Source: a virus (lineage: Duplodnaviria; Heunggongvirae; Uroviricota; Caudoviricetes). Taken from it: 39,715 bases of DNA. The stretch lies in the IMG/VR virus record IMGVR_UViG_2541047728_000019. One strand, written 5' to 3'. The notes below the pieces were generated by a model. That model ran no database searches and was not told the origin of the DNA. It saw only the letters and a program-made list of their open reading frames with translations. Made by a program: the position numbers and the translations under genes. Of this stretch, positions 3,386 through 35,810 are shown one piece after another. Numbering within the stretch: the first letter of the stretch is position 1; each line of letters opens with the position of its first letter.

Positions 3386-6300
3386 TTAACGTTCTTCCAG
3401 AGACTGAATCCGCTCTTTTATCTTATCCATTTCTCTGCGCTGCCATGCTGCCTCGATATAGAATAAGAGATCAGGTCTGACCCCCCATCTAGATCCTGCT
3501 GGCGTTATTTCAACGCGCTCAATGATGTCTTCCATTACCATCACTGGATTATCATCCTCATCAACAATGATGCTCCCGTCATTATCAGTCAGCGGCATTT
3601 CCCTTTGGCCAGTAATGACGTCATCATATACTGCGGGATAATCGTCATAGCAAAGAAAGGCATAGCGGCATGTTGTGCTTTCTTCTTCCATGAGTCCGTG
3701 AGAAATAAGAACATCACGAAGTTGCTGCGCGATTACACCATGATGTATCCTCGCCCCTTCTTCCCCCTTTATAGCGACAGCGTTCAGCCATTTATAAGCG
3801 ATATACCTGACGTCACCCCAGGCATCCAGCAATGCTTCGTCAGGAGAGACCGGCTCTGTCTTTAATGTTCCGTCACTGGTAACCACAGGATTGGAGCCAA
3901 GATAAACTGTCGAGAACCTGTTTCCCGGACCACCAAGAGCATTTACATTATCAAGATAAGGTTTAACATCTCCGTTCTCAAAAAGATGTTCGAGTGCGTT
4001 ATATACCGCGCGACGTGGAGTACTGCTTCTGGAACCATGCAACGTTATCATTGCACCATCTGCTGAAGACGTTGTTTCACCGCCGCTAACGATTAATCTC
4101 TGAGCGGTAACATCATCAGACGGTACTTTCTTCGCAATAATGGCGTAATTACCCTCAAGTTTGACTTCCGCGCGAACTTGTCCTGATGTACCTGCATGGA
4201 CAGTCAGTGACTGGACGGCAACATCATCTGTGAAATCAACGGGTACAGGAACCGTCCTCACGCCTGACGTCGACATAAAAGTAGGAAGCGTTCTGTTAGG
4301 AGTGGCTCCGTAGACAAAATCCCTTGAAACAAATTCTTCCTGTTTAATTTTCACCCTGAAACAATACAAATCAGCCGGGTGACCATCGTGAACATAAGGA
4401 TATTTTCTGTTGTTATCCCCTATGCTCCATGGGTTTAGAAAGTCTTCCCCACCGAAAATGTAGTACAGCCAGTTGTCTTTGATACAAACTGAACCAACAC
4501 CAACCGCAGAGTTAACTATTCCGCCCTGATAAATCTGATCAGTAACATTAACCCACTCTACATTATCCAGACTCCACTCATTGACGTTAACTCTGGTCAT
4601 AAATGTTCTTGGATAATTTCCTGCATAACGGTTATCAGGTTCTCCTCCTTCCCACTCACCAAATGCGCGCTCACTGCCAAAAATAATCAGCTCATCGCCA
4701 ACTTTGGCAAAAGGAAGGTTTGAGTGATGAACATTATTTGGGAAGCGAAGAGAATTCCATGATGTACCTAAATCAGAGCTTCTGTGCAATGAACTACCGG
4801 GTTGAGTACTTAATGTCCCCCTGGTCGTCAGATACAGAATGCCATCATAATATTTTACACATGGCTCAGATGCATTCGCCTCATATTCTACAGGTATGCG
4901 TCTGCGAACAAAGCTACCAGGAGAACCGAAAGCATCAGAGAAATAGAGTATCCCAAGCTCGCGTGGACCAATATCACCATTATGGTAGCCAACAGCAAAA
5001 CTGTTATCGCTAATCGTCGCAAAACTGTGAATCTCAGTAACAGGAGTGCTTCCGTCAACAAAAGAAGGAATAGTTCCAAGACTGGTTTTTCTCCATGGTG
5101 ACGAGTGAAATGATGTGCCAAAACTCCAGTATCTACCCTCGTTATTCTGATCCACATCCTGGGTATTTTTCGTCGTAACTGTAAAGGTATTTTTATCAAT
5201 AACAGTAGTCACCGTCATATTCCCGGTAACACCTGTAACACCAGAGTTTGAGAAGTTGACAAAATCACCAGCAAATAATCCGTGATCAGTAATGCGAATA
5301 TAAGCGACTTGCTGATTTGCTGCTTTCGTTATACCACCATAAACGCGAAGGCTGCGACTCATTGGGCGATCCCACAACTCTGCAACCTGCAGTTTATTTC
5401 CGCTCACGGTCCGCGTCTCAATTACAGCAAAAAGGCGATTTCTGACAACCCCCATACTCATGCAGTGATAGTTAACTGTGGGATAGTTTTCATGTAAATC
5501 TGTAAGCCATTCCGGCGTTGTCCAGGTCTTCCCGTCATCTCCTGAGCGAACCCATGCAACATGGAGGTTATTTACACCATGGCGGTCTCCAGCCATAAAA
5601 GGCGCATAGATGACATTGTCATATACAAACGTTTTATCCTGCGTCCAGGCGTTGTACCACGGTGTATCTGTAATTTTAAATAACTCTCCCTGGATAAAAT
5701 CTTCAGAAGCATAAAAAAGAGGTTGGCCCGGTATTCTCTCAAATAAAAAACGAGCATTTTTAAATCGACTGACATCCGGAAGAGTTGATACTTTAAAAGT
5801 AAGCCCTAATCCGTCAATTTTATAACCTGGAGATGAGGCTTCAAGGCACGCGCTTATTGCAGTGGAATCGTCATTTATACCATCACCAACAGCTCCAAAA
5901 TCTTTGGGGCTAATAGCATCACGCATTTTATCCTGGAACGTTCGGTACACAGCCCCAGAACCATACTGAATAAACCAACCAAAACCACCAACAACCCCGG
6001 AGATTGCAGCATCGACATAATTACGCATTGAGCGATTATTTACAGCGTCCTGCTCAAATGATGGATCTGCAAGGTTAGAAATTTTGTTTTGCTTTGCATC
6101 GTAATATTTTGCAAGCAAAGATGGTTTCATCAATGCACGTCTGAACCACCCAAAACATTGCTGGATCAGCATCGTCAGATAGTCAAAGGCATCTTCATGC
6201 ACCTCGGGGAAAAATTTTCCCTGATTACGAAGATCAGTCTCCTGCACCACATCAAGCACACGATCTATCGTAATTCGCCATCCAGCAGCAAGCGGCGACG

Positions 6301-6505
6301 GAAGAACAACAGAACCGCCACTATAAGTGCCCGCCCCAGTTACCGTATAACCGGTATCCAGTACTAGTTCTGTTACGTTACCGTTAAGGTCAGACACCTG
6401 AACAACCAGGTCGGATTTTTTGAAAATACGGAAGGTATACGGAAATGATGTCGTAACGCCGTTACCAGTGTATTCGTTGTGGTCAACTTCGGTTGAGACC
6501 GTCAT
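3386..6505 (-). CDS. Tailspike: N-terminal particle-binding domain, central beta-helix-type depolymerase region, C-terminal intramolecular chaperone (peptidase S74-like) domain
   Basis: 1039 aa; DFGAVGDGINDDSTAI motif typical of pectate-lyase-like beta-helix enzymes; C-terminal DEALLDAWG...YKWLNAVAIKGEEGARIHHGVIAQQ matches self-cleaving chaperone domains; GGAGA SD. Confidence 0.85.
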   Translation of the reverse strand: MTVSTEVDHNEYTGNGVTTSFPYTFRIFKKSDLVVQVSDLNGNVTELVLDTGYTVTGAGTYSGGSVVLPSPLAAGWRITIDRVLDVVQETDLRNQGKFFPEVHEDAFDYLTMLIQQCFGWFRRALMKPSLLAKYYDAKQNKISNLADPSFEQDAVNNRSMRNYVDAAISGVVGGFGWFIQYGSGAVYRTFQDKMRDAISPKDFGAVGDGINDDSTAISACLEASSPGYKIDGLGLTFKVSTLPDVSRFKNARFLFERIPGQPLFYASEDFIQGELFKITDTPWYNAWTQDKTFVYDNVIYAPFMAGDRHGVNNLHVAWVRSGDDGKTWTTPEWLTDLHENYPTVNYHCMSMGVVRNRLFAVIETRTVSGNKLQVAELWDRPMSRSLRVYGGITKAANQQVAYIRITDHGLFAGDFVNFSNSGVTGVTGNMTVTTVIDKNTFTVTTKNTQDVDQNNEGRYWSFGTSFHSSPWRKTSLGTIPSFVDGSTPVTEIHSFATISDNSFAVGYHNGDIGPRELGILYFSDAFGSPGSFVRRRIPVEYEANASEPCVKYYDGILYLTTRGTLSTQPGSSLHRSSDLGTSWNSLRFPNNVHHSNLPFAKVGDELIIFGSERAFGEWEGGEPDNRYAGNYPRTFMTRVNVNEWSLDNVEWVNVTDQIYQGGIVNSAVGVGSVCIKDNWLYYIFGGEDFLNPWSIGDNNRKYPYVHDGHPADLYCFRVKIKQEEFVSRDFVYGATPNRTLPTFMSTSGVRTVPVPVDFTDDVAVQSLTVHAGTSGQVRAEVKLEGNYAIIAKKVPSDDVTAQRLIVSGGETTSSADGAMITLHGSRSSTPRRAVYNALEHLFENGDVKPYLDNVNALGGPGNRFSTVYLGSNPVVTSDGTLKTEPVSPDEALLDAWGDVRYIAYKWLNAVAIKGEEGARIHHGVIAQQLRDVLISHGLMEEESTTCRYAFLCYDDYPAVYDDVITGQREMPLTDNDGSIIVDEDDNPVMVMEDIIERVEITPAGSRWGVRPDLLFYIEAAWQRREMDKIKERIQSLEER

Positions 6506-6661: not shown

Positions 6662-6681
6662 TACTGTATAAATATACAGTT
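6662..6681 (+). promoter_or_regulatory. LexA (SOS) box TACTGTATAAATATACAGTT
   Basis: CTGT-N8-ACAG with AT-rich spacer, matches LexA consensus taCTGT(AT)4ACAGta; centred about 30 bp upstream of ATG 6701. Confidence 0.6.
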
Positions 6682-6700: not shown

Positions 6701-6958
6701 ATGCAGCAGTATCACTATCCACTGGAAGACGGATTTACCGAAAGGATTCACACGCCGGGAGGCGTCAGGTCACTGGTGGAGGGATCGCACTTGATGAAAT
6801 TACTCCGGGATCTCGATAAGGATGGATTTAATGTCGATGGCCCACTTGCCGAACTGACTGCACTGATTAACTACGTCACCAGCTCACAGATGTCTATGCA
6901 GGATCTGCAAACACATCTCGACTATTGTGCCGAACAATTACGAAAACAAACCCGGTAA
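6701..6958 (+). CDS. Small antirepressor-like protein: stand-alone copy of the Ant C-terminal module
   Basis: 85 aa; clear similarity (IHTPGGV..LMKLL..DG.NV.G..AELT...Y...DLQTH.DY) to the C-termini of both Ant proteins; GGAG SD 8 nt upstream; LexA box in promoter. Confidence 0.55.
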   Translation: MQQYHYPLEDGFTERIHTPGGVRSLVEGSHLMKLLRDLDKDGFNVDGPLAELTALINYVTSSQMSMQDLQTHLDYCAEQLRKQTR

Positions 6959-6964
6959 ATTTAA

Positions 6965-6982
6965 AGGCCGCAAGAGCGGCCT
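6965..6982. terminator. Bidirectional terminator hairpin aggccgc-aaga-gcggcct
   Basis: 7-bp GC stem between convergent genes; near-identical hairpin at 9612-9629. Confidence 0.5.
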
Positions 6983-7709
6983 ATCGTTTCGCTTTGTGCT
7001 CGTCCCAGCACGTTTTGCACCATGCCATTAAGCCGTCCGCATTTTGATTATTAGGGTAAAAGCTGGTCCGTTTTCTGCGGACATTACAAATTGGGCACCA
7101 CTTCATATGGCGTGTATTCTTTGGGCCATCGAGACACCTTGCACACCACTTAGTCAATCCATCTGGATTTTTTGACGATTTCCGGAATTTGTCATATGGA
7201 AGGTTTATTCTGCATCGCAAACACTGCTTGCGGCCACTTGAAACTCTGTTAGCTGATTCTTCTTTTGGCGGCGATACAGAAGGTATTCTTGCTGGCTCTG
7301 ATACTGCCTGAGGTGCTTTTTTAGATGACTGAGACGATATGTCATCACCAGGGAATCTTCCATGATATGCCGGACGCGTTGACACTCCAGGTGGAAGCTC
7401 AGCTGTAAACGGCTTTGGCTGAATCAGTTGCCTCTCTTTTGCTAACTCCTGCTGTTTATAATATGTCTGGATTACCGCGCTATCATAAGCAGGAGGTACG
7501 GAAATATTAGGCGCATTATCTCCCGTTTTTTGAAACTGAGTGGAGGTGTGTTCTATCACCTGTGTACGATTAATCGTTATCTCCCCATCTTCAGTCTTTA
7601 TCGTTTTGTTATGATTAACGACCGTACGATCAGAGATCTTAGTCTTGTTCTGGTTGATAACGTAAATAATCACCGCAACCACACCAACAACTACCCAGAA
7701 AACTTCCAT
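6981..7709 (-). CDS. Membrane-anchored protein with two tandem CxxC-x22-CxxC zinc-ribbon repeats
   Basis: N-terminal TM helix, Pro/Ser-rich linker, repeats CLRC...DGLTKWCARC and CPIC...DGLMAWCKTC; strong GAGGAAAGG SD; operator palindrome about 20 bp upstream. Confidence 0.6.
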   Translation of the reverse strand: MEVFWVVVGVVAVIIYVINQNKTKISDRTVVNHNKTIKTEDGEITINRTQVIEHTSTQFQKTGDNAPNISVPPAYDSAVIQTYYKQQELAKERQLIQPKPFTAELPPGVSTRPAYHGRFPGDDISSQSSKKAPQAVSEPARIPSVSPPKEESANRVSSGRKQCLRCRINLPYDKFRKSSKNPDGLTKWCARCLDGPKNTRHMKWCPICNVRRKRTSFYPNNQNADGLMAWCKTCWDEHKAKR

Positions 7710-7837: not shown

Positions 7838-8104
7838 ATTTACATCGCACTCCTCTTGTGCCATAGTAATCGGGCACTGGCAAAATCCAGTGCCGGGATT
7901 GGTCTCCCGGATTACTACAGAGGCACATATGCCGCATAAGCGGTTTTTTTATGTGTAAAGCGCACCTATTCTATGGTGGGCTGTGTGGGGGCACCGAAAG
8001 GTGCGCCGGGTTCCTTTGTAGCCGGTAAGACCAACTCTGCACAGTTCACCACCATCTGATTGGTCTCAGCGGTGGTGATTAACCTAACTACAAAGGTGAT
8101 CGCC

Positions 8105-8797
8105 ATGAATACCAAACCTTCCATCTTTTCCTTTGAGTCATCCTGCCAGATCCGTATGTTCATGATTGACGGAGAACCTTGGTTTGTCACCAAAGATGTG
8201 TGCAATGCTTTGAATATTGATGTTACACAAGCGAGAAAACTTGATAAAAAAGGCTGGAACAAAAAGGGGCTGTATTCAATACAGACCCCTGGTGGAATAC
8301 AAGAACTATCCATCGTTTCAGAATCAGGTCTCTACATCCTTATTCTGCGTTGCAAAGAGGCAATGACTGAGGGAACGAGAGCATTCAGATTTCTTGAATG
8401 GGTTACAGGTGAGGTTCTTCCTCAGATCCGCCGCACCGGAAGTTACATTAAAAACTCGCTCCCGCAGGAAGAACGCATAAAGATGGTTGCCGACCAGGTA
8501 GCCAACGCCACAGCATCAGCAGTGATGCAGGCAATGAAGATAGAGAACAAAACCTACAGTGCCCCACTGAAGCCCGGCTACCGCAGCCTGATTCATTCTC
8601 CGTCTGGTGTTCTCGGCCTGACGGAGCACTCACTGCTGATGAATCTGTTGAACCAGTTACAGGAAGACGGGCACGACGTATCGGGCGCGGCGGCGGAGCT
8701 GACCACCATGTTCTGCTACATCGTCGGTGTGAGCAAATGCCTGCGTGATATCCAGACTCACGCGGAGTACATCAACGACAAGGCAGGGTTCTTCTGA
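8105..8797 (+). CDS. Antirepressor, Bro-N/KilA-N N-terminal domain plus shared Ant C-terminal module
   Basis: Bro-N signature (FVTKDVCNAL...SESGLYILILR...FLEWVTGEVLPQIRRTGSY); start MNTKPS at 8105; C-terminal 77 aa near-identical to the other Ant. Confidence 0.8.
   Translation: MNTKPSIFSFESSCQIRMFMIDGEPWFVTKDVCNALNIDVTQARKLDKKGWNKKGLYSIQTPGGIQELSIVSESGLYILILRCKEAMTEGTRAFRFLEWVTGEVLPQIRRTGSYIKNSLPQEERIKMVADQVANATASAVMQAMKIENKTYSAPLKPGYRSLIHSPSGVLGLTEHSLLMNLLNQLQEDGHDVSGAAAELTTMFCYIVGVSKCLRDIQTHAEYINDKAGFF
8564..8797 (+). repeat. Left arm of a 234-bp inverted repeat (about 95 percent identical to 9689-9922)
   Basis: Codon-by-codon comparison by eye: 11 differences, 10 synonymous; encodes the shared Ant C-terminal module. 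Confidence 0.8.
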
Positions 8798-8868
8798 CGG
8801 CGGCGGCACAGGGATGTGCCTTTAAATAATTCTGTACGATTGCAGACCGGGGGGTGAATAGAGTACTA

Positions 8869-9012: not shown

Positions 9013-9552
9013 GTGTTAAGTGAAGAAATGCAATTTGCCATGGCTGTGGCTCAAATCGTAAGTGCAGTCGCGGTTTCGCTTGGCTTGTTCATAGCTATCG
9101 CTACTATTATTTATAATGTAAATACAGCGAGAAAAGTACACACTTCAGTATTCCTTGGTGAAAGCAGGTTTGATGTAGATTATAAGAAAGGCCTATCTAC
9201 TATGCGCCGCATTCACGAGTCGAACAAATCATTCCGCTCTTATATGTATCCAAGCAATGGGCAGGCTGATCTTACGGATGAAGAAAAGATAGAGAAGAGA
9301 GAAATAATTTACTGTCTAGGTTTCTACGAACGCATGGCTGTGAGCGTGAAGCGGAAAACTTATGATGAGACCATGATTAAGGAAGTATTTTACAGCTCCG
9401 TTGTAAATAACTATCAGATTGCGCTACCTCTTATACAAGCTATTAGAGAAAAAGAAAACATAAACACATATTTTAAAGAATATGAATGGTTGGCCACACG
9501 ATGGAAGGATTGTCCATTGAAGGATAAATCCCCGTGGTACAAGTTTTGGTAA
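9013..9552 (+). CDS. Membrane-anchored protein, unknown function (candidate superinfection-exclusion or abortive-infection factor)
   Basis: GTG start with GGAG SD; N-terminal TM helix then about 150-aa soluble domain; AT-rich relative to neighbours. Confidence 0.6.
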   Translation: MLSEEMQFAMAVAQIVSAVAVSLGLFIAIATIIYNVNTARKVHTSVFLGESRFDVDYKKGLSTMRRIHESNKSFRSYMYPSNGQADLTDEEKIEKREIIYCLGFYERMAVSVKRKTYDETMIKEVFYSSVVNNYQIALPLIQAIREKENINTYFKEYEWLATRWKDCPLKDKSPWYKFW

Positions 9553-9602: not shown

Positions 9603-9629
9603 TGGCATTCGTTAAAAACAAGGCCGCGA
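9603..9629 (-). terminator. Rho-independent terminator after the AntA-type antirepressor
   Basis: aggccgc-gaaa-gcggcct stem preceded by A-run on plus strand (U-run on minus transcript). Confidence 0.55.
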
Positions 9630-9688
9630 AAGCGGCCTGTGACATGTCACGCTAGTTTCGTTTTGCACGTCCCTGTGCCGCCGTTCTG

Positions 9689-9922
9689 TCAGAAGAACCC
9701 TGCCTTGTCGTTGATGTATTCCGCGTGCGTCTGGATATCACGCAGGCATTTGCTCACACCAACGATGTAGCAGAACATGGTGGTCAGCTCCGCCGCCGCG
9801 CCCGATACATCGTGCCCGTCTTCCTGTAACTGGTTCAGCAGATTCATCAGCAGTGAGTTCTCCGTCAGGCCGAGAACACCCGACGGCGAATGAATCAGAC
9901 TGCGGTAGCCTGGCTTCAATGG
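9689..9922 (-). repeat. Right arm of the 234-bp inverted repeat
   Basis: Reverse complement aligns to 8564-8797 with about 95 percent identity. Confidence 0.8.
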
Positions 9923-10627
9923 ATAACCATAACATTTTGTCTGTGTTTTAATTGCCTCACGAAGCGCATCTAACATCTTGACTGCCACTTCATCATTCTC
10001 TGATGCAGATCCAGCAGGGAGATACTCCCCTTCAAGCGGAACCCGAGCAACAAGAGACAACGCTTCGGCAAATTGATCTTCACCAATTTCTTTGTACGAA
10101 CAGCCAAAATGAGATTTCAGTGACGACCACATGGTGATCATCGCCTTAGCCTGTTTTTCTTTTGGCAGAGACTGACCGCGACTCATGACGAGTTGTTTAA
10201 TGGCTTCCTGCTGTTCAGTTGTTATTTTACCCGGCAACGCCTTTTTAGCTTTGCGTGGGTTAACCACATGGCCTTTAGTCCAGTACTCGTAGAGCACATC
10301 GTCACACTCTTCCTGATACTGGATTACCTTGTCGCGGATTTCAGGGCGGACTTTGTTAGGGCTGATGCTGTTCAACCAAGCTGCCAATTTTCGTAAAGCC
10401 ATACAAATCATGGCTTGCACCCCACCGGCAGAAGGTATGGTGATTTCCACCATACCCTTCGAGAAGCGTTGAGAAATCTTCTTATGTTGAGATTTCCAGT
10501 CTAGCCCCATTCCCTCAACGATAGGTTTCATTGGGGTATACGGTTCGCCGTTGTGATTGACAACATAAAGCTCTGCGCCGTGGAATGGCACGTTGATAGT
10601 AGATACTGCTGTTGCTATACTCGTCAT
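9689..10627 (-). CDS. ant: Antirepressor, AntA-type N-terminal domain plus shared Ant C-terminal module
   Basis: N-terminal PFHGAELYVVNHNGEPYTPMKPIVEGMGLDW resembles AntA; downstream of Arc-like gene as in P22 immI. Confidence 0.8.
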   Translation of the reverse strand: MTSIATAVSTINVPFHGAELYVVNHNGEPYTPMKPIVEGMGLDWKSQHKKISQRFSKGMVEITIPSAGGVQAMICMALRKLAAWLNSISPNKVRPEIRDKVIQYQEECDDVLYEYWTKGHVVNPRKAKKALPGKITTEQQEAIKQLVMSRGQSLPKEKQAKAMITMWSSLKSHFGCSYKEIGEDQFAEALSLVARVPLEGEYLPAGSASENDEVAVKMLDALREAIKTQTKCYGYPLKPGYRSLIHSPSGVLGLTENSLLMNLLNQLQEDGHDVSGAAAELTTMFCYIVGVSKCLRDIQTHAEYINDKAGFF

Positions 10628-10676
10628 GTCGTTAATTCCTATACGTAGTTTTACGATACTGAAGCCCTGACGGTCT

Positions 10677-10690
10677 GGCCACCGTGGGGC
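10677..10690. promoter_or_regulatory. GC-rich dyad GGCCACCGTGGGGC between arc-like and ant
   Basis: Near-palindrome; second copy at 10882-10896. Confidence 0.35.
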
Positions 10691-10699
10691 TTCGCTGTT

Positions 10700-10867
10700 T
10701 TATGCCACGCTATTCTTCTCACCAGTGAGTCCATACACTTTCCTCAGCTGATAGATAATCTCTGTATTGAACTTTCGGCATTCTTTTTCGCCATTTCTTT
10801 CAATAGCTAACTTCACATCGTCCGGAAAACGAACTCGTCGTTGACACATCTCTTTTGCTTTTTGCAT
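10700..10867 (-). CDS. arc: Arc-like ribbon-helix-helix repressor
   Basis: 55 aa; RVRFPDDVKLAIERNGEKECRKFNTEIIYQLRKVYG parallels P22 Arc; AGGAGA SD before ATG 10867. Confidence 0.7.
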   Translation of the reverse strand: MQKAKEMCQRRVRFPDDVKLAIERNGEKECRKFNTEIIYQLRKVYGLTGEKNSVA

Positions 10868-10881
10868 TTCATATCTCCTTA

Positions 10882-10896
10882 GCCCCACCGTGGGGC
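10882..10896. promoter_or_regulatory. GC-rich dyad GCCCCACCGTGGGGC in the arc/mnt divergent control region
   Basis: Near-perfect palindrome overlapping arc 5' region; further dyads (CACCGTG...CACGGTG) nearby. Confidence 0.4.
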
Positions 10897-10987
10897 AAAA
10901 TAATTGTCACACCGTGCGTCATTGATGTCAAGCACACGGTGAGGCATACTTCAATCATTGCAAGTAACTCAATATTTGGTGAAGAAC

Positions 10988-11419
10988 ATGAGCAGAGAAG
11001 ATCCACAACTAAGGATCAGACTTCCCGTCGAAGTAAAAGAAAAAATAGAAATTTCTGCAAAAGCCAATAAGCGATCAATGAACGCTGAAATAGTACAACG
11101 TCTTGACACCAGCTTTCTGAAAGATATTCATGAAGATGACGTAATTTCTGCTTATGAAGCAAAAATCATTGCAAACAATGCACGACATGAAATATCAAAT
11201 ATTATTTTCAAAAGAACCTTTAATGAAATTAATAAGAAAATAACACTTGGACATACAAGTTTTTATATAAACCTTAATGACCTTGAACTGGAATCACTTG
11301 CAGATAATGATTACCAGATCATCTTTGAAAAAACATTTAATAAGCTCAATGAACTAGGTTACATCATCTGTGAAAACTCATGGGATGCAGATGGTTTTGG
11401 AATTGAAATACCTGAATAG
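10988..11419 (+). CDS. mnt: Mnt-like ribbon-helix-helix repressor with about 95-aa C-terminal extension
   Basis: MSREDPQLRIRLPVEVKEKIEISAKANKRSMNAEIVQRL closely parallels the P22 Mnt N-terminus; divergent from arc-ant; very AT-rich. Confidence 0.7.
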   Translation: MSREDPQLRIRLPVEVKEKIEISAKANKRSMNAEIVQRLDTSFLKDIHEDDVISAYEAKIIANNARHEISNIIFKRTFNEINKKITLGHTSFYINLNDLELESLADNDYQIIFEKTFNKLNELGYIICENSWDADGFGIEIPE

Positions 11420-11482
11420 GAAGAACAAAAGGCGTGTACATATTACACGTCTTTAATACAATTGAAAAACGCCACATTACTG

Positions 11483-12073
11483 ATGTATGTTACAACAAGG
11501 AGCGATATTTTGAAAACCATATCTATATTAAAGGTTGCATTAGGCGTCGCTATTATTTTGACTCTCTCAATATTGTTTTATTTTTACCACAAACAAACTG
11601 CTATTGCTCTTGATAGTCACGCGGCAAACTCATTTTTCTCAGAGTACATAGTGCCGCTATCAGGAAGCGGTATAACAAATAAATATACTGACTATGACAT
11701 CAAATATGGAATTGATGATGGGGAGACTATTGTATTACATGTAATCATTAAAAACCTAATGACAGTAAATAAAAATACAGACTTCAACGATAAAAATACA
11801 ATACATCACAACAACAGCAAAACATTAATTTCTTATAGTAGCAACATCTATACGGATAAATACCTAAAATACATATCAGAAGATACAATAAAAGAAACCC
11901 GCGAAAAGTTAAAAAACATATATTGTGCATCCGGCAGTTTTCACAAATTATCGCCGCAAGAGCGTTTATTCTACGAAGCAAGAAAACAACGTAAGTCAAT
12001 AATATTACATTATTATGCTGATTCAGGGGAGACACTCATATTTAATATTGGGGTTTCCCCTGAATCATGCTAA
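11483..12073 (+). CDS. Membrane-anchored protein, unknown function, at the sieA-equivalent position
   Basis: N-terminal TM helix, Asn/Lys/Tyr-rich soluble domain, very AT-rich; start uncertain (ATG 11483 or TTG 11510 preceded by AAGGAG). Confidence 0.55.
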   Translation: MYVTTRSDILKTISILKVALGVAIILTLSILFYFYHKQTAIALDSHAANSFFSEYIVPLSGSGITNKYTDYDIKYGIDDGETIVLHVIIKNLMTVNKNTDFNDKNTIHHNNSKTLISYSSNIYTDKYLKYISEDTIKETREKLKNIYCASGSFHKLSPQERLFYEARKQRKSIILHYYADSGETLIFNIGVSPESC

Positions 12074-12084
12074 AGGTGTTTAAC

Positions 12085-15000
12085 TCACCGCATCACCGGA
12101 TCCACCTGGTTTATTAGTGGCGCAATCCAGAACAGGTTATTGCCGGGTATCAGGGTTCGGACATTATGCACAATACGATCACCGGCATCACCATTCAACA
12201 CTCCTGCGGTCACATCAATGATGCTATCCGCAAGACCAAATGACGGTCCGAATAGAGATCCTACGAATCCACGACTGGCATACCTAGACTGTGTGCCAGT
12301 GCCAAATAAAGCCCCCAGCCCAACAGCACCACCAGTAGCCTTTTCAGCCATATTGTTATATTCCATCAATGGCCCAAGAATACCGGATCTATCTATACCC
12401 TCAAGCACCAGCTTCTCTGGTGACCAGTCAACATTTTTCCCTTTCGATGCTTCTTTAAGCGCATAGACCAGTGAGCCAAGAGCAATCTGAAATGCAGTGC
12501 CATAATAAAATTGCGCAGTTCCTTCCTGTAACCCACCAAGTAGCGCACGGTTGTATGAAGCCGTTGTGAATGATTTAAACTGAAATATCGTTCGCCCCAT
12601 TGGAGTACTCGCCCATAAAGGTGTGTCACCAATACCGGGGGTGATGATAGTGTTATTAACGTCTTTCAGAACCGCTGACTGGAATACTCCGGCAACGTAC
12701 TGATCGTCCCATTTATCAAAGTTACCAATGTGCCATCCATCAATTACCTCACCATGTTTCTCGAACTCACTGCGAATACGCGCAGCCATATTGTCGTTGA
12801 TACCGAGTTTTGCCATGCGACGTGCAGAAAACGCACCAGACAAAATACCGTCTGACGTGAGCATTCCGTTCATGGATTTGTTTATGTCATTAAATCGATC
12901 CATGAGTGTCAGCTTGCCGAAGGCATCAGTAATTCGCTCCATTCCTGCTTCGACTGCTGTTGTCCTGGAAGAACTGTCAACAAGATCACCAATTGCACGA
13001 GAACGTGAATGTAGTACAGTTTCCAATCCAATCCCCATCTTCAACATCTCTTCTTTGCTGGCCTTAAATGCCGGTGATTGGGATATCTGAGAAGCATAGC
13101 CTTTCATGGAGTTACGGAAACCATTAACCATAACCCCTCTGGCCAGATCTGGAATAGCTGATACTGTCATTCCACCGAGTTTGGTCGTGAAGTTCACATC
13201 CCGCAGAAAAGCGCCAGCACGAACAAAAAACGAAGACGGGTCATCAGGCATACCATATGTACCAACAAGACGATCGCGTAATGCTGTTATGTCTCTGAGA
13301 TCATTTGCTCTTGATTTTGAAAGTCTGGACTGTTCTTTCCGTAATTCCTTTTCGTACTTTCGCATTAATGAATCGAGTTTACCCTGAGGAACAACTTCAC
13401 CATTGCTCTCATAACGTGCTTTCAGATTTGCCACACTTTCGTCATATTTCGCCTTTATTTTTTCAGGCACTTCCCGTAACAGACTGTCATATTCGTCCTC
13501 AATTAATTGCAGACGCTCTGTCATAGTTCGTTTGCCAAATGTTCTCGTCAACTCAATTTCTGCTGCCGCTTCACGGATATGACGTTGTAGAACGTAATTC
13601 ACATCACTTTCGAGATAATCCCTGATAAGACTATCAGGCACATTTAATGTTCTTTCTTTCGTACTACCTGCGGCTTTTACAGAAAATACGCTGACAAAAT
13701 CCTGTGGAACCTTAGCACCAGTAATTTTATTAATTACGATATCCGCTGCAATTTCAGCATCCTCAGGATCCAGTGTTTTATTGCCTCTCGACCACCAGTC
13801 AACCAAAATACGTCGAAATTTATCGCGTTCACTGATTATTTTTCCAACTTTATATATACGTGGGAAATAGCTTGCCTGGCCTAATGCTTTCAGTTCTTCA
13901 TCTGGCGGCAATAAACCAAGCTTTTGCATTTCAACCTTCACCCGATTTAATACAGTTCGCATCGCCTGCGCCGTTTCCTGAACAACAGGATTAGCATGCA
14001 CATCACCGCTTCGCATAGCATTCCCAACCTGCTGACGAAATGAATCAAAACTCATGTCACCACCATCAGCTTTATACTTTGCGTATGCCTGTTTATTTCC
14101 GACAACAACAGCAGCTTCTTCACGCTGCCATCCACGTGTACGGGTTTCTACAGCTACCGGTGTTTCAATCCCCCTTTCATTTCCTTTAAGGGTGAAATTA
14201 TTTTCGGCTAACTCCAGCGTTGTTTTTCGCACTGTCTTGGACGGAGACTCCATTAACCTTGTCAAAGGAGTAAGATAGCTCCCTGCTTTCCATGCAGCCT
14301 TTCCAACCACCCCACCGGAAACAGGGGTTAAATCATCCAGAGTCGCTGTATCAATTTTCATAGCACCAACACTACCACCATCAGAAAGCGAAGCGGCAGC
14401 CCTGTCAGTCGCTGATGTAATGCTCATATTATCAAGAGCATCAGCAACCTCACGCGTGGCTGCAGCCCGGACGGATGGCGAAAGCGCAACACCAGCACTG
14501 GCAAACACGCCGCTCATCATCGCACCCGCTGCAATGTGAGCGGCACTTTCACCCCATGAGCGTGTTATTTGCTGATTATTCAGCACAACCTCGCTTAATG
14601 CTGTACCGGCTGCACCAATCGCAATCTGTGAGCCAATACGCGCCAGTGCCCCTCCTTGAGCACCGGGGATAAACATTGACGCAACAGTAACCGGATCCAT
14701 TCCCGCAGCAATACTGGCAAGGGTTCCAACTACGCCAGCATCAGACAATAAACGTCTGTCTTCATTTTCATCATCTATCTGCTGCTTAATCCACGCCGTT
14801 TCCTCTGGCGATCGGGAATCTGCAAATTTCGCCCCCCAGTATTCATAACCGTGCAACTCATTTTTATCAGCATATGGGTTATAACCTTCGACCGGTTCAA
14901 ACTGTCTGGCTGGTCGGAAAAAACCAGCCAGAATATTGTTCTGTCGCATTGCAGCCCCCCATACGGAAGGCTCCGGTGGCAATGGCTCAGGATTAGCCCC

Positions 15001-15099
15001 TTCCGGAAGGGCAACATCAAACCCAGTTTGTTCCGGCAAAACATTACCTGACGGGATCAGTCCGTTATTAAGATCTTCAGCTTGTGCATAAACTGGCAT
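12085..15099 (-). CDS. Large internal virion / DNA-ejection protein
   Basis: 1004 aa, last of the internal-protein block; start overlaps upstream stop. Confidence 0.75.
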   Translation of the reverse strand: MPVYAQAEDLNNGLIPSGNVLPEQTGFDVALPEGANPEPLPPEPSVWGAAMRQNNILAGFFRPARQFEPVEGYNPYADKNELHGYEYWGAKFADSRSPEETAWIKQQIDDENEDRRLLSDAGVVGTLASIAAGMDPVTVASMFIPGAQGGALARIGSQIAIGAAGTALSEVVLNNQQITRSWGESAAHIAAGAMMSGVFASAGVALSPSVRAAATREVADALDNMSITSATDRAAASLSDGGSVGAMKIDTATLDDLTPVSGGVVGKAAWKAGSYLTPLTRLMESPSKTVRKTTLELAENNFTLKGNERGIETPVAVETRTRGWQREEAAVVVGNKQAYAKYKADGGDMSFDSFRQQVGNAMRSGDVHANPVVQETAQAMRTVLNRVKVEMQKLGLLPPDEELKALGQASYFPRIYKVGKIISERDKFRRILVDWWSRGNKTLDPEDAEIAADIVINKITGAKVPQDFVSVFSVKAAGSTKERTLNVPDSLIRDYLESDVNYVLQRHIREAAAEIELTRTFGKRTMTERLQLIEDEYDSLLREVPEKIKAKYDESVANLKARYESNGEVVPQGKLDSLMRKYEKELRKEQSRLSKSRANDLRDITALRDRLVGTYGMPDDPSSFFVRAGAFLRDVNFTTKLGGMTVSAIPDLARGVMVNGFRNSMKGYASQISQSPAFKASKEEMLKMGIGLETVLHSRSRAIGDLVDSSSRTTAVEAGMERITDAFGKLTLMDRFNDINKSMNGMLTSDGILSGAFSARRMAKLGINDNMAARIRSEFEKHGEVIDGWHIGNFDKWDDQYVAGVFQSAVLKDVNNTIITPGIGDTPLWASTPMGRTIFQFKSFTTASYNRALLGGLQEGTAQFYYGTAFQIALGSLVYALKEASKGKNVDWSPEKLVLEGIDRSGILGPLMEYNNMAEKATGGAVGLGALFGTGTQSRYASRGFVGSLFGPSFGLADSIIDVTAGVLNGDAGDRIVHNVRTLIPGNNLFWIAPLINQVDPVMR

Positions 15100-17816
15100 T
15101 ATTTAGATCCCCACGAAAAGTAATCTTTAAATTTGTCCATACGTTCGTTATGCAGGCGCTGATACTGCTCATCCAGAGCGCGATGCTTGTCTTTGAAGTT
15201 TCGTATAGCCTGTCCACGCATAATTTCTTCCTGCTCGTACTGCTCCCGTTCCTGCTGCATTTTCTTATAAGGTTCCCAATCTTCTAGTGATGGTTCCCAA
15301 CGCATAGGACGCCCATGTTTGTTATAAAACGGCTGGACCCGATCGATGCCATTTTCATCCTTAGTTCTTACCATAATGGCGTAATCACCATTACGAGGTG
15401 TTAACACGTCAGGGGTTATGAATAATTCTCCATTAATACGACTCTCAGGGGTTTTTGTCTCAACTACAGGAGCATTACCTGACGTGATCCCAAGCAACGT
15501 CGGACTGGTTGTTATAATCTCTTTGCGCTCACCGTACATCAGCCGTTCTTTTTCAGCTTTCCACTGCGCCGCCTGCCAGCCTGACGGCCCATATTGATAA
15601 AGCGCCTCCGGTGCATATTTCATAAACTGCGCTTCTCCGTTAACCTCGCTGATACTCCAGGTGCGGGCTATCTGCTGGTTGGTCATTTGCTTCGCTACGT
15701 CAGCGTTACCACCAGCAACGCGGTAGTTAATGTCATACAGCGTCTGATAGTCATTACGGAATCTAGCTGCTTCCGGCGTCTGGTCATCCGCAGACGGATC
15801 CCAACGGAACCACTGCGCCATATTGCTGACAGCAGAATTCATCGCCTTGCTGCGATTATTTTTGTACTCTTTTGAACTCTGCGTTGATGCCAATTGAGCT
15901 TTAAGAGCATCGGTCTGGTTGTACGTCAGGTTCTGCGCCTGCTCGATAGCCGCATCAGCAGACATGCCAGAATCTGTTAGTTGCTTAACAGTCAGATAAA
16001 AACCCTGCATATCCTTCGGCATATTTCCAATAGATGCATTGTCTGTTTCATATAACCGACTAAACAAATTCGCTGCATTTTTAACCACTTCCTGATTGCT
16101 GGATCTGGATACTGCTGAAAGCTGCGTGATGACCTGCGAAGGCATGATGCCAGTCTGAGCCACAAGCCGAACAACCCCATCATGAGTGGAGGCATCATTA
16201 ATACGAAAGTTCTGCGCCATTTCTGTGTAATCAGCAGCTTTCTGCATTGATTTGTTGCTTGGGTCTAATTTTTCACCTATTGTCAGCGCCTCATTGAATC
16301 TGCGTGAATCACGTTGCGCCTGAATTGCTTCATTTGATCGCTGAAGCAATGCAGACAATTTTCCGTAAGCATCGAGTTTTAACGCATAGTGAGGATCGTT
16401 AACCTCAGGCTTCACTTTCTGCATTTCTTCTTGCTGCTGAGAAGGAGGTAAATACTGAATTGCCTGGAATATTCTCGCGTTATCAATCGCTATATCCAGT
16501 TGATTGATTATTTTATCTGCATTTTTTCCATACCCCCTGATGATAGTCTCCTGAGCCGGTATATAATCTGGAACCTCACCGTTATATAGCTGGGCCATGG
16601 TGTTATTAATAGCTGGCTCAAGCTGTTCTAATATTAACTTCCTTTGCTTTTCTATCTGACTATTAGCAAGGTTATCTATTTGATAAATAGTCAGCGGATC
16701 CATTCCAGTTTTATTTTTTCTATATCGGGAAAGCCACCCTTGTGTTTCTGATGGAAGATTTCGGATAAATTCTTCTTCTGATATTTCACCTTTACGTGGA
16801 TCACCGACTTTGGCGATCAGTTTATCCACGTTACCCATCCCCCAGTTATATGCTGCTCCGGTCAATATTTCGGAGCCGTACTTACCATACAGTTGATTTA
16901 CATAGTCACTGGCGAGCATTTCATGCTGTTGTTCGTCCGTAGGGTTGTATTTAACGCCACGCTTGGCCGCCAGTTCTTTCCCTGTGCCCGGCATTAACTG
17001 GTATTTCCCCTGGGCTCTCTCTCCAGAAGATGTTATCGGTCCTTCAAGAAGACTACCATCAGGATTAAAATGTCGATCACCTGATTCAACAAGGCGTATG
17101 GCACGCATGTCCATGCCTCCAGAATCATTTTTCTGAAACAGACCATTTAGCCATCCTTCTGGATTGGCAGCGGCATAATTCTTCGCCCGCATTTCTGTGG
17201 CACGGCGATCATCACTTTCTATTTCTTCCAGAATGCGTTCTTGTGACCATCCCCTGGCAGCTCCATATCTAGCAATGGCTACCATTCTGGAATTTCTGGC
17301 TAAAGTGGCAGTTTGCGGGTCATTCCAGGCATCCGCTTCATTTTGTATCCATAATTTTCTCGTTGCCTGATATTGCTCATCTTCATAGGCATTTGTCTGC
17401 CCTATCTCATGTCTGAGAACTCCAGTACTGAACTGAATTTTCTGTGTTCTGGCTTGTTGCAAAAACATATTTCTTGCTGCTTCATCAGTCAATGAAGCAG
17501 CTATTTCTTCCACATCCTGATCAAATCCAGATATGTACTCTTGCCCCTTACCAATCGCATTTTTGCCTTGTTGTGCATAAAAACCGGTTTGAGGGTTATA
17601 AAGACGTTCATTGCTGCGCTGATTAAGCTGAAGGATGGCATCCTGAGACAATGCAACATTCGCTTTCTGCCTGGCTTCACCATATGCCACCGCATACTGA
17701 TCTGCGACATTCGCCAGCACCTGACCTGCTTGAGGAACATCGAAGATCTGAAAACCACCGGTTTGCACACCACGACTTTGCACCTGGCGTCCGGATGTAG
17801 TAGGAACAACAGGCAT
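15099..17816 (-). CDS. Internal virion protein with soluble lytic transglycosylase domain
   Basis: 905 aa; SLT-like segment with ES..GDRHF...GKYQLMPGT and AAYNWGMGNV. Confidence 0.85.
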   Translation of the reverse strand: MPVVPTTSGRQVQSRGVQTGGFQIFDVPQAGQVLANVADQYAVAYGEARQKANVALSQDAILQLNQRSNERLYNPQTGFYAQQGKNAIGKGQEYISGFDQDVEEIAASLTDEAARNMFLQQARTQKIQFSTGVLRHEIGQTNAYEDEQYQATRKLWIQNEADAWNDPQTATLARNSRMVAIARYGAARGWSQERILEEIESDDRRATEMRAKNYAAANPEGWLNGLFQKNDSGGMDMRAIRLVESGDRHFNPDGSLLEGPITSSGERAQGKYQLMPGTGKELAAKRGVKYNPTDEQQHEMLASDYVNQLYGKYGSEILTGAAYNWGMGNVDKLIAKVGDPRKGEISEEEFIRNLPSETQGWLSRYRKNKTGMDPLTIYQIDNLANSQIEKQRKLILEQLEPAINNTMAQLYNGEVPDYIPAQETIIRGYGKNADKIINQLDIAIDNARIFQAIQYLPPSQQQEEMQKVKPEVNDPHYALKLDAYGKLSALLQRSNEAIQAQRDSRRFNEALTIGEKLDPSNKSMQKAADYTEMAQNFRINDASTHDGVVRLVAQTGIMPSQVITQLSAVSRSSNQEVVKNAANLFSRLYETDNASIGNMPKDMQGFYLTVKQLTDSGMSADAAIEQAQNLTYNQTDALKAQLASTQSSKEYKNNRSKAMNSAVSNMAQWFRWDPSADDQTPEAARFRNDYQTLYDINYRVAGGNADVAKQMTNQQIARTWSISEVNGEAQFMKYAPEALYQYGPSGWQAAQWKAEKERLMYGERKEIITTSPTLLGITSGNAPVVETKTPESRINGELFITPDVLTPRNGDYAIMVRTKDENGIDRVQPFYNKHGRPMRWEPSLEDWEPYKKMQQEREQYEQEEIMRGQAIRNFKDKHRALDEQYQRLHNERMDKFKDYFSWGSK

Positions 17817-27142: not shown

Positions 27143-27219
27143 GTGGCATTAGCTCAGTTGGACAGAGCAACCGCCTTCTAAGCGGTTGGTCGCAGGTTCG
27201 AATCCTGCATGCCACGCCA
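27143..27219 (+). tRNA. tRNA-Arg (anticodon UCU, reads AGA)
   Basis: Cloverleaf folded by hand: acceptor GTGGCAT/ATGCCAC, D-arm GCTC..GAGC, anticodon stem ACCGC/GCGGT with loop CTTCTAA, T-arm GCAGG-TTCGAATC-CCTGC, 3' CCA encoded. Confidence 0.85.
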
Positions 27220-35225: not shown

Positions 35226-35810
35226 ATGAAAAGTATCCAGGACGTCCGCAGGCAAAATCTCAACGACTTGATCGACCGTGAATTCAATGGTGTTCAGACG
35301 CGGATGGCTGAAAAACTTGGAACTCAGGCAAATCTGGTAAACCGCTGGGCTCTTGGCAAGAAGGTTATCGGCGACCAGGTTGCACGAAAAATTGAAGCTG
35401 CCGCCAATAAACCCCGTAACTGGCTTGATATCGATCGCTCGCTTTCTCAGGAAGGTTTTCAGCCTGTCGGCCCAAGCGACATTGGCCAGCTGGCGGCTCA
35501 CAACCTGGAACGCTGGATGAGCGAAAGCCGCGACCTTTCAACACAGGGAAAACTTCACCGCGCATCCGGCGTAGCCCAGGTGACAATCAGCCGCCTATTA
35601 AACAATGAGGTCAGCGTTTCCATTTCCACCCTGGAGAATGTTGCATCCGCATTCGGGCGTCACGGCTATGAATTACTGATTCACCCGCACGACCCTGCGA
35701 CCATCAACTATGATCGCTCGCGCTACGCATTGTTACCCGAAACCGAGAAAGCAAAGATCGAAAGTTACATTGAATTTGTCATCAACCAGAACGAAAAAAA
35801 CAAACAATAA
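35226..35810 (+). CDS. Repressor-like DNA-binding protein with two HTH-like segments and no S24 peptidase domain
   Basis: 194 aa; HTH-like QTRMAEKLGTQANLVNRWALGKK and a second in the C-half; no Ser/Lys autocleavage motifs seen. Confidence 0.6.
   Translation: MKSIQDVRRQNLNDLIDREFNGVQTRMAEKLGTQANLVNRWALGKKVIGDQVARKIEAAANKPRNWLDIDRSLSQEGFQPVGPSDIGQLAAHNLERWMSESRDLSTQGKLHRASGVAQVTISRLLNNEVSVSISTLENVASAFGRHGYELLIHPHDPATINYDRSRYALLPETEKAKIESYIEFVINQNEKNKQ

Follow-up and report, generated by a model that had tools for sequence, protein, structure and literature searches.

The immunity-I (immI) region of phage P22 has served as a textbook model both for DNA recognition by ribbon-helix-helix (RHH) proteins and for antisense control, and it is known almost wholly from P22 itself. 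Here we describe a cassette of similar content, comprising the genes ant, arc-like and mnt-like, at positions 9,689 to 11,419 of a 39,715-nucleotide virus record (IMG/VR IMGVR_UViG_2541047728_000019), which is referred to in its full length as the window. The window is a temperate-phage genome of the TL-2011b type, with about 97% nucleotide identity to Escherichia phage TL-2011b around the cassette and 99.6% over the cassette itself (10560–11450; NC_019445). An earlier reading of the letters alone, here termed the original prediction, had proposed an immI-like switch in which arc-ant runs leftward and mnt divergently. Family scans and BLASTP against the P22 RefSeq proteins confirmed the identity and orientation of these genes, and their content and order match those annotated for P22 immI; the proposal was strengthened by the finding of a sar RNA and of Psar-like and Pant-like promoters.

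Genes and antisense RNA of the cassette

The ant gene (9689–10627, minus strand) encodes an antirepressor of 312 amino acids that matches the Pfam family P22_AR_N (PF10547) with an E-value of 5.9e-45 and 152.6 bits, the cut-off being 30.7. The protein shows 39% identity to P22 Ant over 217 amino acids (E 2e-37), corresponding to an N-terminal part of about 217 residues, and its last 80 or so residues are without match to P22 Ant. Residues 231–307 match chain E of PDB entry 5D50, 'Anti-repressor protein' (E 6.8e-14). By sequence, Ant is a chimera between a P22_AR_N module and a C-terminus resembling the solved Rep-binding antirepressor of 5D50. A terminator-like hairpin with a T-run, found by consensus scan on the minus strand at 9621–9638, about 50 bp 3' of the ant stop codon, probably ends the arc-ant transcript, judging from its position.

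A helix-turn-helix (HTH) repressor gene (rep), located far from the cassette at 35226–35810 on the plus strand (Pfam HTH_3, 1.2e-9), encodes a product whose residues 1–190 match chain A of the same structure, 'Repressor' (E 4e-42). This prophage repressor is the probable target of Ant, and an interaction would be predicted from the homology of the Ant C-terminus and of the Rep candidate to the two partners of 5D50; the effector end of Ant thus appears matched to the phage's own repressor. Entries 5D50 and 5D4Z presumably represent the Rep–Ant complex of the epsilon15-like Salmonella phage SPC32H, a system that was reportedly described by Kim and Ryu in 2013 and by Kim et al. in 2016. The window encodes homologues of both the antirepressor (6701–6958, E 4e-47) and the repressor of that complex, and differs from it in that the antirepressor domain also occurs in the P22-type Ant, fused to P22_AR_N and placed under Arc, Mnt and sar rather than LexA control.

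The first gene of the ant operon, arc-like (10700–10867, minus strand), encodes an RHH protein of 55 amino acids that was assigned to phrog_228, 'Arc-like repressor' (3.4e-5). It is 33% identical to P22 Arc over 40 amino acids (E 4e-5), with which it shares Q9, R13, P15, R31, N34 and E36. The divergent mnt-like gene (10988–11419, plus strand) encodes a larger RHH protein of 143 amino acids (Pfam Arc, 1.1e-14; phrog_1388 over its full length), where the ATG at 10988 is taken as the start codon and the mechanically defined open reading frame (ORF) begins at TTG 10958. It shows 32% identity to P22 Mnt over 88 amino acids (E 3e-14). A profile built from 75 homologues matches the solved Mnt repressor 1MNT (2e-7) as well as Arc and, among annotated phage proteins outside TL-2011b, those closest to the Mnt-like protein are for the most part Mnt of P22-like phages. 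The RHH domain occupies residues 1–46 and is followed by a C-terminal alpha/beta domain of 95 amino acids, which is additional relative to the 82-residue P22 Mnt; the short C-terminal tetramerisation helix of the 82-residue type is not seen in the 143-residue protein. Members of the Mnt-like family are common in Enterobacterales, range from 142 to 151 amino acids and carry an invariant N-terminus, MSREDPQLRIRLP. The Arc-like and Mnt-like families also align with one another (hhalign probability 77%, E 2e-5), with the beta-strand QRRVRF of the former aligned with QLRIRL of the latter, and the two repressors carry the same Q-x-R-x-R strand, which is not the case in P22.

The type of system is a textbook one and the exact cassette is already present in GenBank with Ant and Arc named: for TL-2011b (gp40–gp42) RefSeq gives 'anti-repressor Ant' and 'Arc-like repressor', leaving sar and the operators without annotation. 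The Mnt-like gene of that phage (gp40, 8569–8910) is annotated as a shorter 'hypothetical protein' and its tblastn match begins at residue 10, which points to an indel, a start-codon difference or a mis-called start in the published record.

An antisense RNA of the sar family (Rfam RF00262) was detected over the full length of the model at 10629–10696 on the plus strand, scoring 44.8 bits (E 4e-7) where the gathering score is 43. It starts beside the ant AUG, and both the ribosome-binding region of ant and the spacer between arc and ant are complementary to it. According to the Rfam structural alignment and RNA folding (-25.9 kcal/mol, z -2.7), it ends in a terminator hairpin (10661–10693), from which a T-run extends as far as the arc stop codon. 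A Psar-like promoter, TTGATA-17-TATACT (10593–10621, plus strand, 10/12 consensus positions), lies antisense within the first ant codons and is the best plus-strand promoter match of the region. The geometry of promoter, RNA and terminator is the same as that annotated for P22, where sar extends over 15021–15090 and Psar over 15097–15125, and the terminator overlaps the arc stop codon. On the minus strand, a Pant-like promoter, TTGACA-17-GACAAT (10903–10931, 10/12), is predicted to drive arc-ant; its hexamers are conserved in relatives and, together with Psar-like, it constitutes the two top consensus matches of the region.

Comparison with the P22-like phage CUS-3 revealed 93–94% nucleotide identity over the first 200 or so ant codons and the 5' half of sar, ending in the loop of the hairpin. 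In relatives, the part carrying the arc-like and mnt-like genes precedes antirepressors of several unrelated families and, in nearly all of them, an antirepressor-type gene lies downstream of the small gene. In terms of sequence, therefore, the cassette is a mosaic in which a CUS-3-like ant/sar part is joined to an arc-like/mnt-like part that is found throughout the Enterobacterales.

Predicted operators between arc-like and mnt-like

Two GC-rich dyads had been singled out in the original prediction, GGCCACCGTGGGGC at 10677–10690 (dyad 1) and GCCCCACCGTGGGGC at 10882–10896 (dyad 2), and both are present. They had been considered unlike the P22 operators and suggestive of a different operator specificity, and for dyad 2 both statements proved incorrect. 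This dyad, here termed box C, is a perfect 15-bp palindrome, GCCCCAC-C-GTGGGGC, centred on 10889, at the predicted +1 of Pant and just upstream of the arc Shine-Dalgarno sequence. In the P22 record the Arc operator (Oarc) is annotated at 14798–14818 and the Mnt operator (Omnt) at 14822–14844. Box C matches Omnt, GGTCCACGGTGGACC, at 11 of 15 positions, among them all of the central 9 bp CCACGGTGG, and differs from it only at symmetric outer positions. Moreover, the palindrome begins 7 bp past the Pant -10 in both phages, the order being TTGACA-17-TATATT-6 (ctcaat)-AGGTCCACGGTGGACCT-GAGGTG (Shine-Dalgarno)-ATG arc in P22 and TTGACA-17-GACAAT-6 (tatttt)-GCCCCACGGTGGGGC-taAGGAG (Shine-Dalgarno)-ATG arc on the minus strand of the window. 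On these grounds box C is a predicted Mnt-type operator at the position homologous to P22 Omnt. Alternate residues of the RHH strand are reported, in work by Sauer and Stormo, to contact bases, and the strand reads Q-L-R-I-R in the Mnt-like protein against H-F-N-F-R in P22 Mnt, so that altered outer operator positions around a retained core would be expected.

Two further sites of the same type lie beyond box C. Box B, GTCACAC-C-GTGCGTC (GTCACACCGTGCGTC; 10906–10920, centre 10913), falls in the spacer and -10 of Pant, at the position that Oarc occupies in P22. Box A, AGCACAC-G-GTGAGGC (AGCACACGGTGAGGC; 10931–10945, centre 10938), falls in the spacer of a putative Pmnt, TTGATG-17-CATACT (10922–10950, plus strand), which was read from the sequence and, at 8/12, stays below the scan threshold. 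The -35 of this candidate promoter overlaps that of Pant back to back, and relatives conserve TTGnnG-17-CATAAT. The box centres are 24 and 25 bp apart. The arrangement thus differs from P22 in having three phased CAC-N-GTG boxes in place of a single Omnt and a single Oarc, P22 immI holding only one site of this kind, and in having Pant and Pmnt back to back with common -35 regions where the P22 promoters overlap fully.

The motif CACSGTG occurs seven times in the 39.7 kb and four of these sites lie within 10680–10941; in simulations the probability that at least three of seven sites would fall within 56 bp was 2.2e-4. The longer form CCACSGTGG occurs twice in the window against an expectation of 0.17. 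Both the clustering and the excess render it unlikely that the boxes arose by chance. Of 26 loci retrieved from other species, 25 have all three boxes and the remaining one, from Rhizobium, has two; the same layout is kept across a range that extends from Enterobacterales to Acinetobacter. The Enterobacterales loci also retain TTGnnGTCAA and CATAAT around the boxes, and box B is nearly invariant in one set of relatives (group 1). Furthermore, the box flanks vary with the strand of the accompanying Mnt-like protein: QLRIRLP occurs with CCCCAC, QLRVRIP with CTCAC and QLK[IV]RLP, found in Acinetobacter, Giesbergeria and Pseudorhodoferax, with ACCAC.

Five arc-less cassettes from Xenorhabdus and Serratia encode Mnt-like proteins of 107–109 amino acids and carry three CTCACnGTGAG boxes; their small divergent gene (MxIKVSQLNH..., 57–70 amino acids) is not an RHH gene and antirepressor-type genes lie downstream. 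The persistence of three boxes where the small divergent gene is not of the RHH type ties them to the Mnt-like protein and we conclude, on the strength of this conservation, that the three boxes are predicted operators of Mnt-like proteins. Boxes A and C differ between lineages: that of the window has a perfect box C, a degenerate box A and the Pmnt -10 CATACT, and most relatives (fifteen loci compared) have a perfect box A, an imperfect box C and the -10 CATAAT, which suggests a shifted balance between autorepression and repression of ant.

Proposed switch and alternative explanations

The cassette shares with P22 immI the order and orientation of its genes, homologous RHH repressors, the N-terminal domain of Ant, a sar RNA whose promoter lies within ant and whose terminator falls at the arc stop codon, and a Mnt-type palindrome 7 bp past the Pant -10. 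At least 12 complete E. coli genomes carry an identical copy of the cassette and at least 36 contain most of it, which argues against decay; in those complete genomes the Prokaryotic Genome Annotation Pipeline (PGAP) names two of the three cassette genes. We consider it highly probable that the locus represents a functional version of the P22 immI antirepressor control cassette and that it belongs to an E. coli prophage, a temperate podovirus resembling TL-2011b.

The order of events proposed here is modelled on P22 immI. The strong Pant-like promoter would transcribe arc-like and then ant. In a lysogen, the Mnt-like protein would occupy the CAC-N-GTG operators, covering the transcription start at box C and the promoter spacer at box B such that ant is silent, while its binding to box A, in the spacer of its own promoter, would temper Pmnt. 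When the phage genome enters a cell lacking the Mnt-like protein, Pant would fire and yield a burst of Arc-like protein and Ant, after which the Arc-like protein would shut the promoters off, probably via box B. The sar RNA, ending at the dyad 1 hairpin, would pair with the ant ribosome-binding region and limit translation of Ant, and Ant would inactivate the HTH repressor through its C-terminal domain homologous to the 5D50 antirepressor. This sequence of events follows P22 genetics (PMC2629481, PMC7380047). Control of the arc-ant promoter by LexA was also considered and rejected, no LexA-type box being found in 10560–11000.

Several observations weigh against the interpretation as an immI cassette or against parts of it. 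The Arc-like protein is not recognised by Pfam Arc at E <= 0.01, and its family profile reaches the Arc chains of the PDB at only E 0.02–0.05. No counterpart of the C-terminal domain of the Mnt-like protein was recognised in the searches. In the window, the Pmnt prediction is weak and box A is degenerate, most relatives having a perfect CCCCACnGTGGGG. The score for sar barely exceeds its threshold, in comparison with 84.6 bits for CUS-3, and sar was not found at the gathering score in cassettes from other genera; judged by its distribution, sar travels with the P22-type ant, apart from the arc/mnt part. Finally, there is no TAGA-type Arc operator and any target assigned to the Arc-like protein is, to that extent, a guess.

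The last point leads to the most serious alternative, a variant of the proposal above, in which all three boxes belong to the Mnt-like protein and the Arc-like protein either does not repress Pant or binds a site that was not recognised. The three-box loci of Xenorhabdus and Serratia would fit this scheme, as would the absence of a 21-bp Arc operator of the ATGATAGAAGCACTCTACTAT type, with TAGA half-sites, between the -35 and -10 of Pant, where the spacer TCAATGACGCACGGTGT holds box B. However, the Arc-like protein is conserved at the positions that correspond to the DNA contacts Q9 and R13 of P22 Arc, and its QRRVRF strand would predict a half-site similar to that of the Mnt-like protein. In addition, the flanks of box B (GTCACAC/GACGCAC), unlike those of boxes A and C, are distinct and invariant only in loci where an Arc-like protein is present, making box B the best candidate for its site. 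We therefore regard the variant as rather improbable, though by no means negligible, and favour an Arc-like protein that probably uses the same box family.

A second alternative, that both GC dyads are operators of a new specificity unrelated to P22, one for each RHH protein, would account for the exact 12-mer CCACCGTGGGGC that is common to the two dyads and that would be unexpected in unrelated elements. It would also give a reason for the rewriting of the sar upper stem (10661–10693) relative to CUS-3 (4638–4669 of its locus) and P22, from ACUGUUcccGCAGU to ACGGUcuggccACCGU, in which pairing has been kept by compensating changes and the 12-mer shared with box C has been produced. Nevertheless, dyad 1 coincides with the 3' arm of the sar terminator hairpin and lies wholly within its stem; its CACCGTG core has been lost by a G to T change in six of 20 near-identical viral contigs, all of which keep the cores of boxes A to C, and cassettes from other genera lack a counterpart of dyad 1. 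Dyad 2, for its part, shares its location and 11 of 15 positions with P22 Omnt. The scheme is thus unlikely, and an operator role for dyad 1 is not borne out: the evidence favours an RNA hairpin over a secondary protein-binding site. The rewritten stem itself may have been left behind by recombination or may serve as a weak additional operator.

It had been foreseen that the dyads might act only as RNA hairpins, which the evidence favours for dyad 1 and speaks against for dyad 2. For the latter, a purely RNA role, exerted from within the arc leader on the stability or translation of the mRNA, could be argued from the predicted transcript start at the dyad, which would place a 6-bp GC stem (-10.7 kcal/mol) in the leader beside the Shine-Dalgarno sequence. 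Yet the motif recurs at boxes A and B, and box B, being situated upstream of the two predicted transcription starts, should not be transcribed from either promoter. Box C of relatives is often imperfect, for example GTCACACCGTGAGGC, while the CAC-N-GTG core is kept and the centre base is free. In an alignment of 16 loci spanning genera, the block GTCACACCGTGCGTCATTGnnGTCAACCCCACnGTGGGGCATAATTT is almost invariant, the leaders are unalignable and the centre bases of the boxes vary freely, as fits palindromes bound by protein rather than RNA structures. Given also the coincidence of box C with the annotated P22 Mnt operator, we judge a hairpin-only role for dyad 2 to be very improbable. A reading of the RHH genes as a toxin-antitoxin or ParG-type partition module with an incidental link to ant, prompted by the PHROG label 'partition protein ATPase', has scarcely any likelihood and was rejected, since family scans revealed ant and a membrane protein as neighbours and no adjacent toxin or ParA gene, the genuine P22 mnt bears the same label in RefSeq and is likewise mislabelled, and the synteny extends in full to ant, sar and the Omnt-type operator.

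With the immI reading retained, the variant suggests a module that is much more widespread and more modular than its occurrence in P22-like phages would imply, with a different operator logic, in which three phased sites of one family serve two repressors with the same DNA-contact residues, and with an effector domain that appears to have been swapped to suit the repressor of the host phage. The Ant C-terminus comes from a different family than in P22 and the phage that carries it is not P22-like. More tentatively, and with a conviction that falls somewhat short of even, we propose a portable 'antirepressor lock' widespread in Proteobacteria, in which an enlarged Mnt-like protein binds cooperatively to three phased operators of one family, an Arc-like protein shares its specificity and any antirepressor can be fitted; here it would guard one of three antirepressors that have a domain in common and respond to SOS-LexA, C4/isrK RNA and Arc/Mnt/sar inputs. 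The body of papers searched contained no description of the TL-2011b cassette, of a three-box Mnt operator array, of a P22_AR_N/5D50-type chimera, of an enlarged Mnt-like protein or of strand residues shared by two such repressors. The natural covariation of protein and operator could be exploited for studies of RHH specificity, and the cassette bears on how prophages are induced and how they behave in superinfection in pathogenic E. coli, namely K1 and Shiga toxin-producing (STEC) strains. None of these findings overturns current understanding.

Host phage, genomic slot and neighbouring antirepressors

Family scans placed the cassette between genes for internal-virion or ejection-type proteins (12085–17816), the last of which before the cassette is at 12085–15099, and an endosialidase tailspike gene (3386–6505), in agreement with the flanks originally described. 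The location had by implication been presented as unusual for an immI region, but in the annotated P22 record immI occupies the same slot, flanked by gene 16 for an ejection protein and by the tailspike gene 9, and this variable site of P22-like phages was named the 'ant moron' by Casjens and colleagues (PMC2629481). Uetakevirus phiV10 has the same slot without arc, ant or mnt genes, which indicates that the cassette is an accessory insert in the expected place. The further description of the virion module as T7-like holds loosely for gene order, in that the order of the block and its PHROG names fit portal, scaffold, capsid, tail tube A and B, internal virion proteins and tail fibre. The nearest phage, TL-2011b, is however called a Uetakevirus (PMC11522302). 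Lambdoid-type replication and recombination genes are present in the window and family scans found no T7-type RNA polymerase among its genes. The published work on mEpimmI deals with siphoviruses that have lambda-type tail genes, and it shows no link to TL-2011b.

The tailspike carries endosialidase domains that depolymerise the K1 capsule (Pfam End_beta_propel, 3.7e-233) and has a catalytic part that shares about 98% identity with siaK1 of CUS-3, in which the siaK1 tailspike likewise adjoins ant; tailspike and ant may have moved as a pair between unrelated podoviruses. In TL-2011b the tailspike is O103-specific and the cargo between two antirepressor genes also differs from that of the window.

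On the other side of the cassette, co-oriented downstream of mnt-like, orf203 (11462–12073) encodes a protein of 203 amino acids with an N-terminal membrane anchor (phrog_8033, function not assigned), at the position of sieA in P22. The analogy is purely positional, with no similarity to P22 SieA (E 0.11), and the candidate was dropped. Scanning the cassette and the adjoining genes with NCBIfam and PADLOC was uninformative apart from a faint TIR-like match to orf203 in PADLOC (E 0.006). A terminator-like hairpin on the minus strand (11449–11433) separates mnt-like from orf203.

Two further antirepressor genes lie close by. The first is an ORF of 85 amino acids (6701–6958) encoding the close match to the 86-residue antirepressor of 5D50 mentioned above; it is immediately preceded by a perfect LexA-type box, CTGTATAAATATACAG (6664–6679). 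The second belongs to a cassette of the P1/P7-immI/Gifsy type (7874–8797), with the same arrangement in TL-2011b, in which RNA family scans detected isrK (7874–7950, 74.7 bits) and a C4 antisense RNA (7969–8056, 78.6 bits) directly upstream of a Bro-N antirepressor gene (8060–8797). It is similar to P1/P7 immI (c4 antisense RNA, icd, ant) and to Gifsy isrK, where control is by RNA only. The window thus has three genes for antirepressors with the phrog_450 domain, each controlled in a different way (by SOS, by C4/isrK RNA or by Arc/Mnt/sar), such that one prophage has wired a single antirepressor domain to three control inputs. Between the small antirepressor gene and the isrK/C4 cassette, a gene at 6981–7709 encodes a protein of 242 amino acids with a C-terminal pair of cysteine-rich repeats, a weak match to Stc1, matches to endonuclease VII and Lar-like PHROGs, and a full-length match to phrog_6762 (function not assigned).

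A 270-bp inverted repeat (8529–8798 and 9688–9957, 91% complementary) encodes the common C-terminal domain of the Bro-N and P22-type antirepressors, which are 83% identical there over 101 amino acids. It brackets a DUF4760 gene (9013–9552), itself flanked by terminator-like hairpins, and the cargo bracketed in TL-2011b is different and includes a YafO-family toxin; the repeat could drive exchange or inversion of the cargo. Elsewhere in the window, a tRNA-Arg gene (anticodon TCT) is located at 27143–27219, between the portal and terminase regions.

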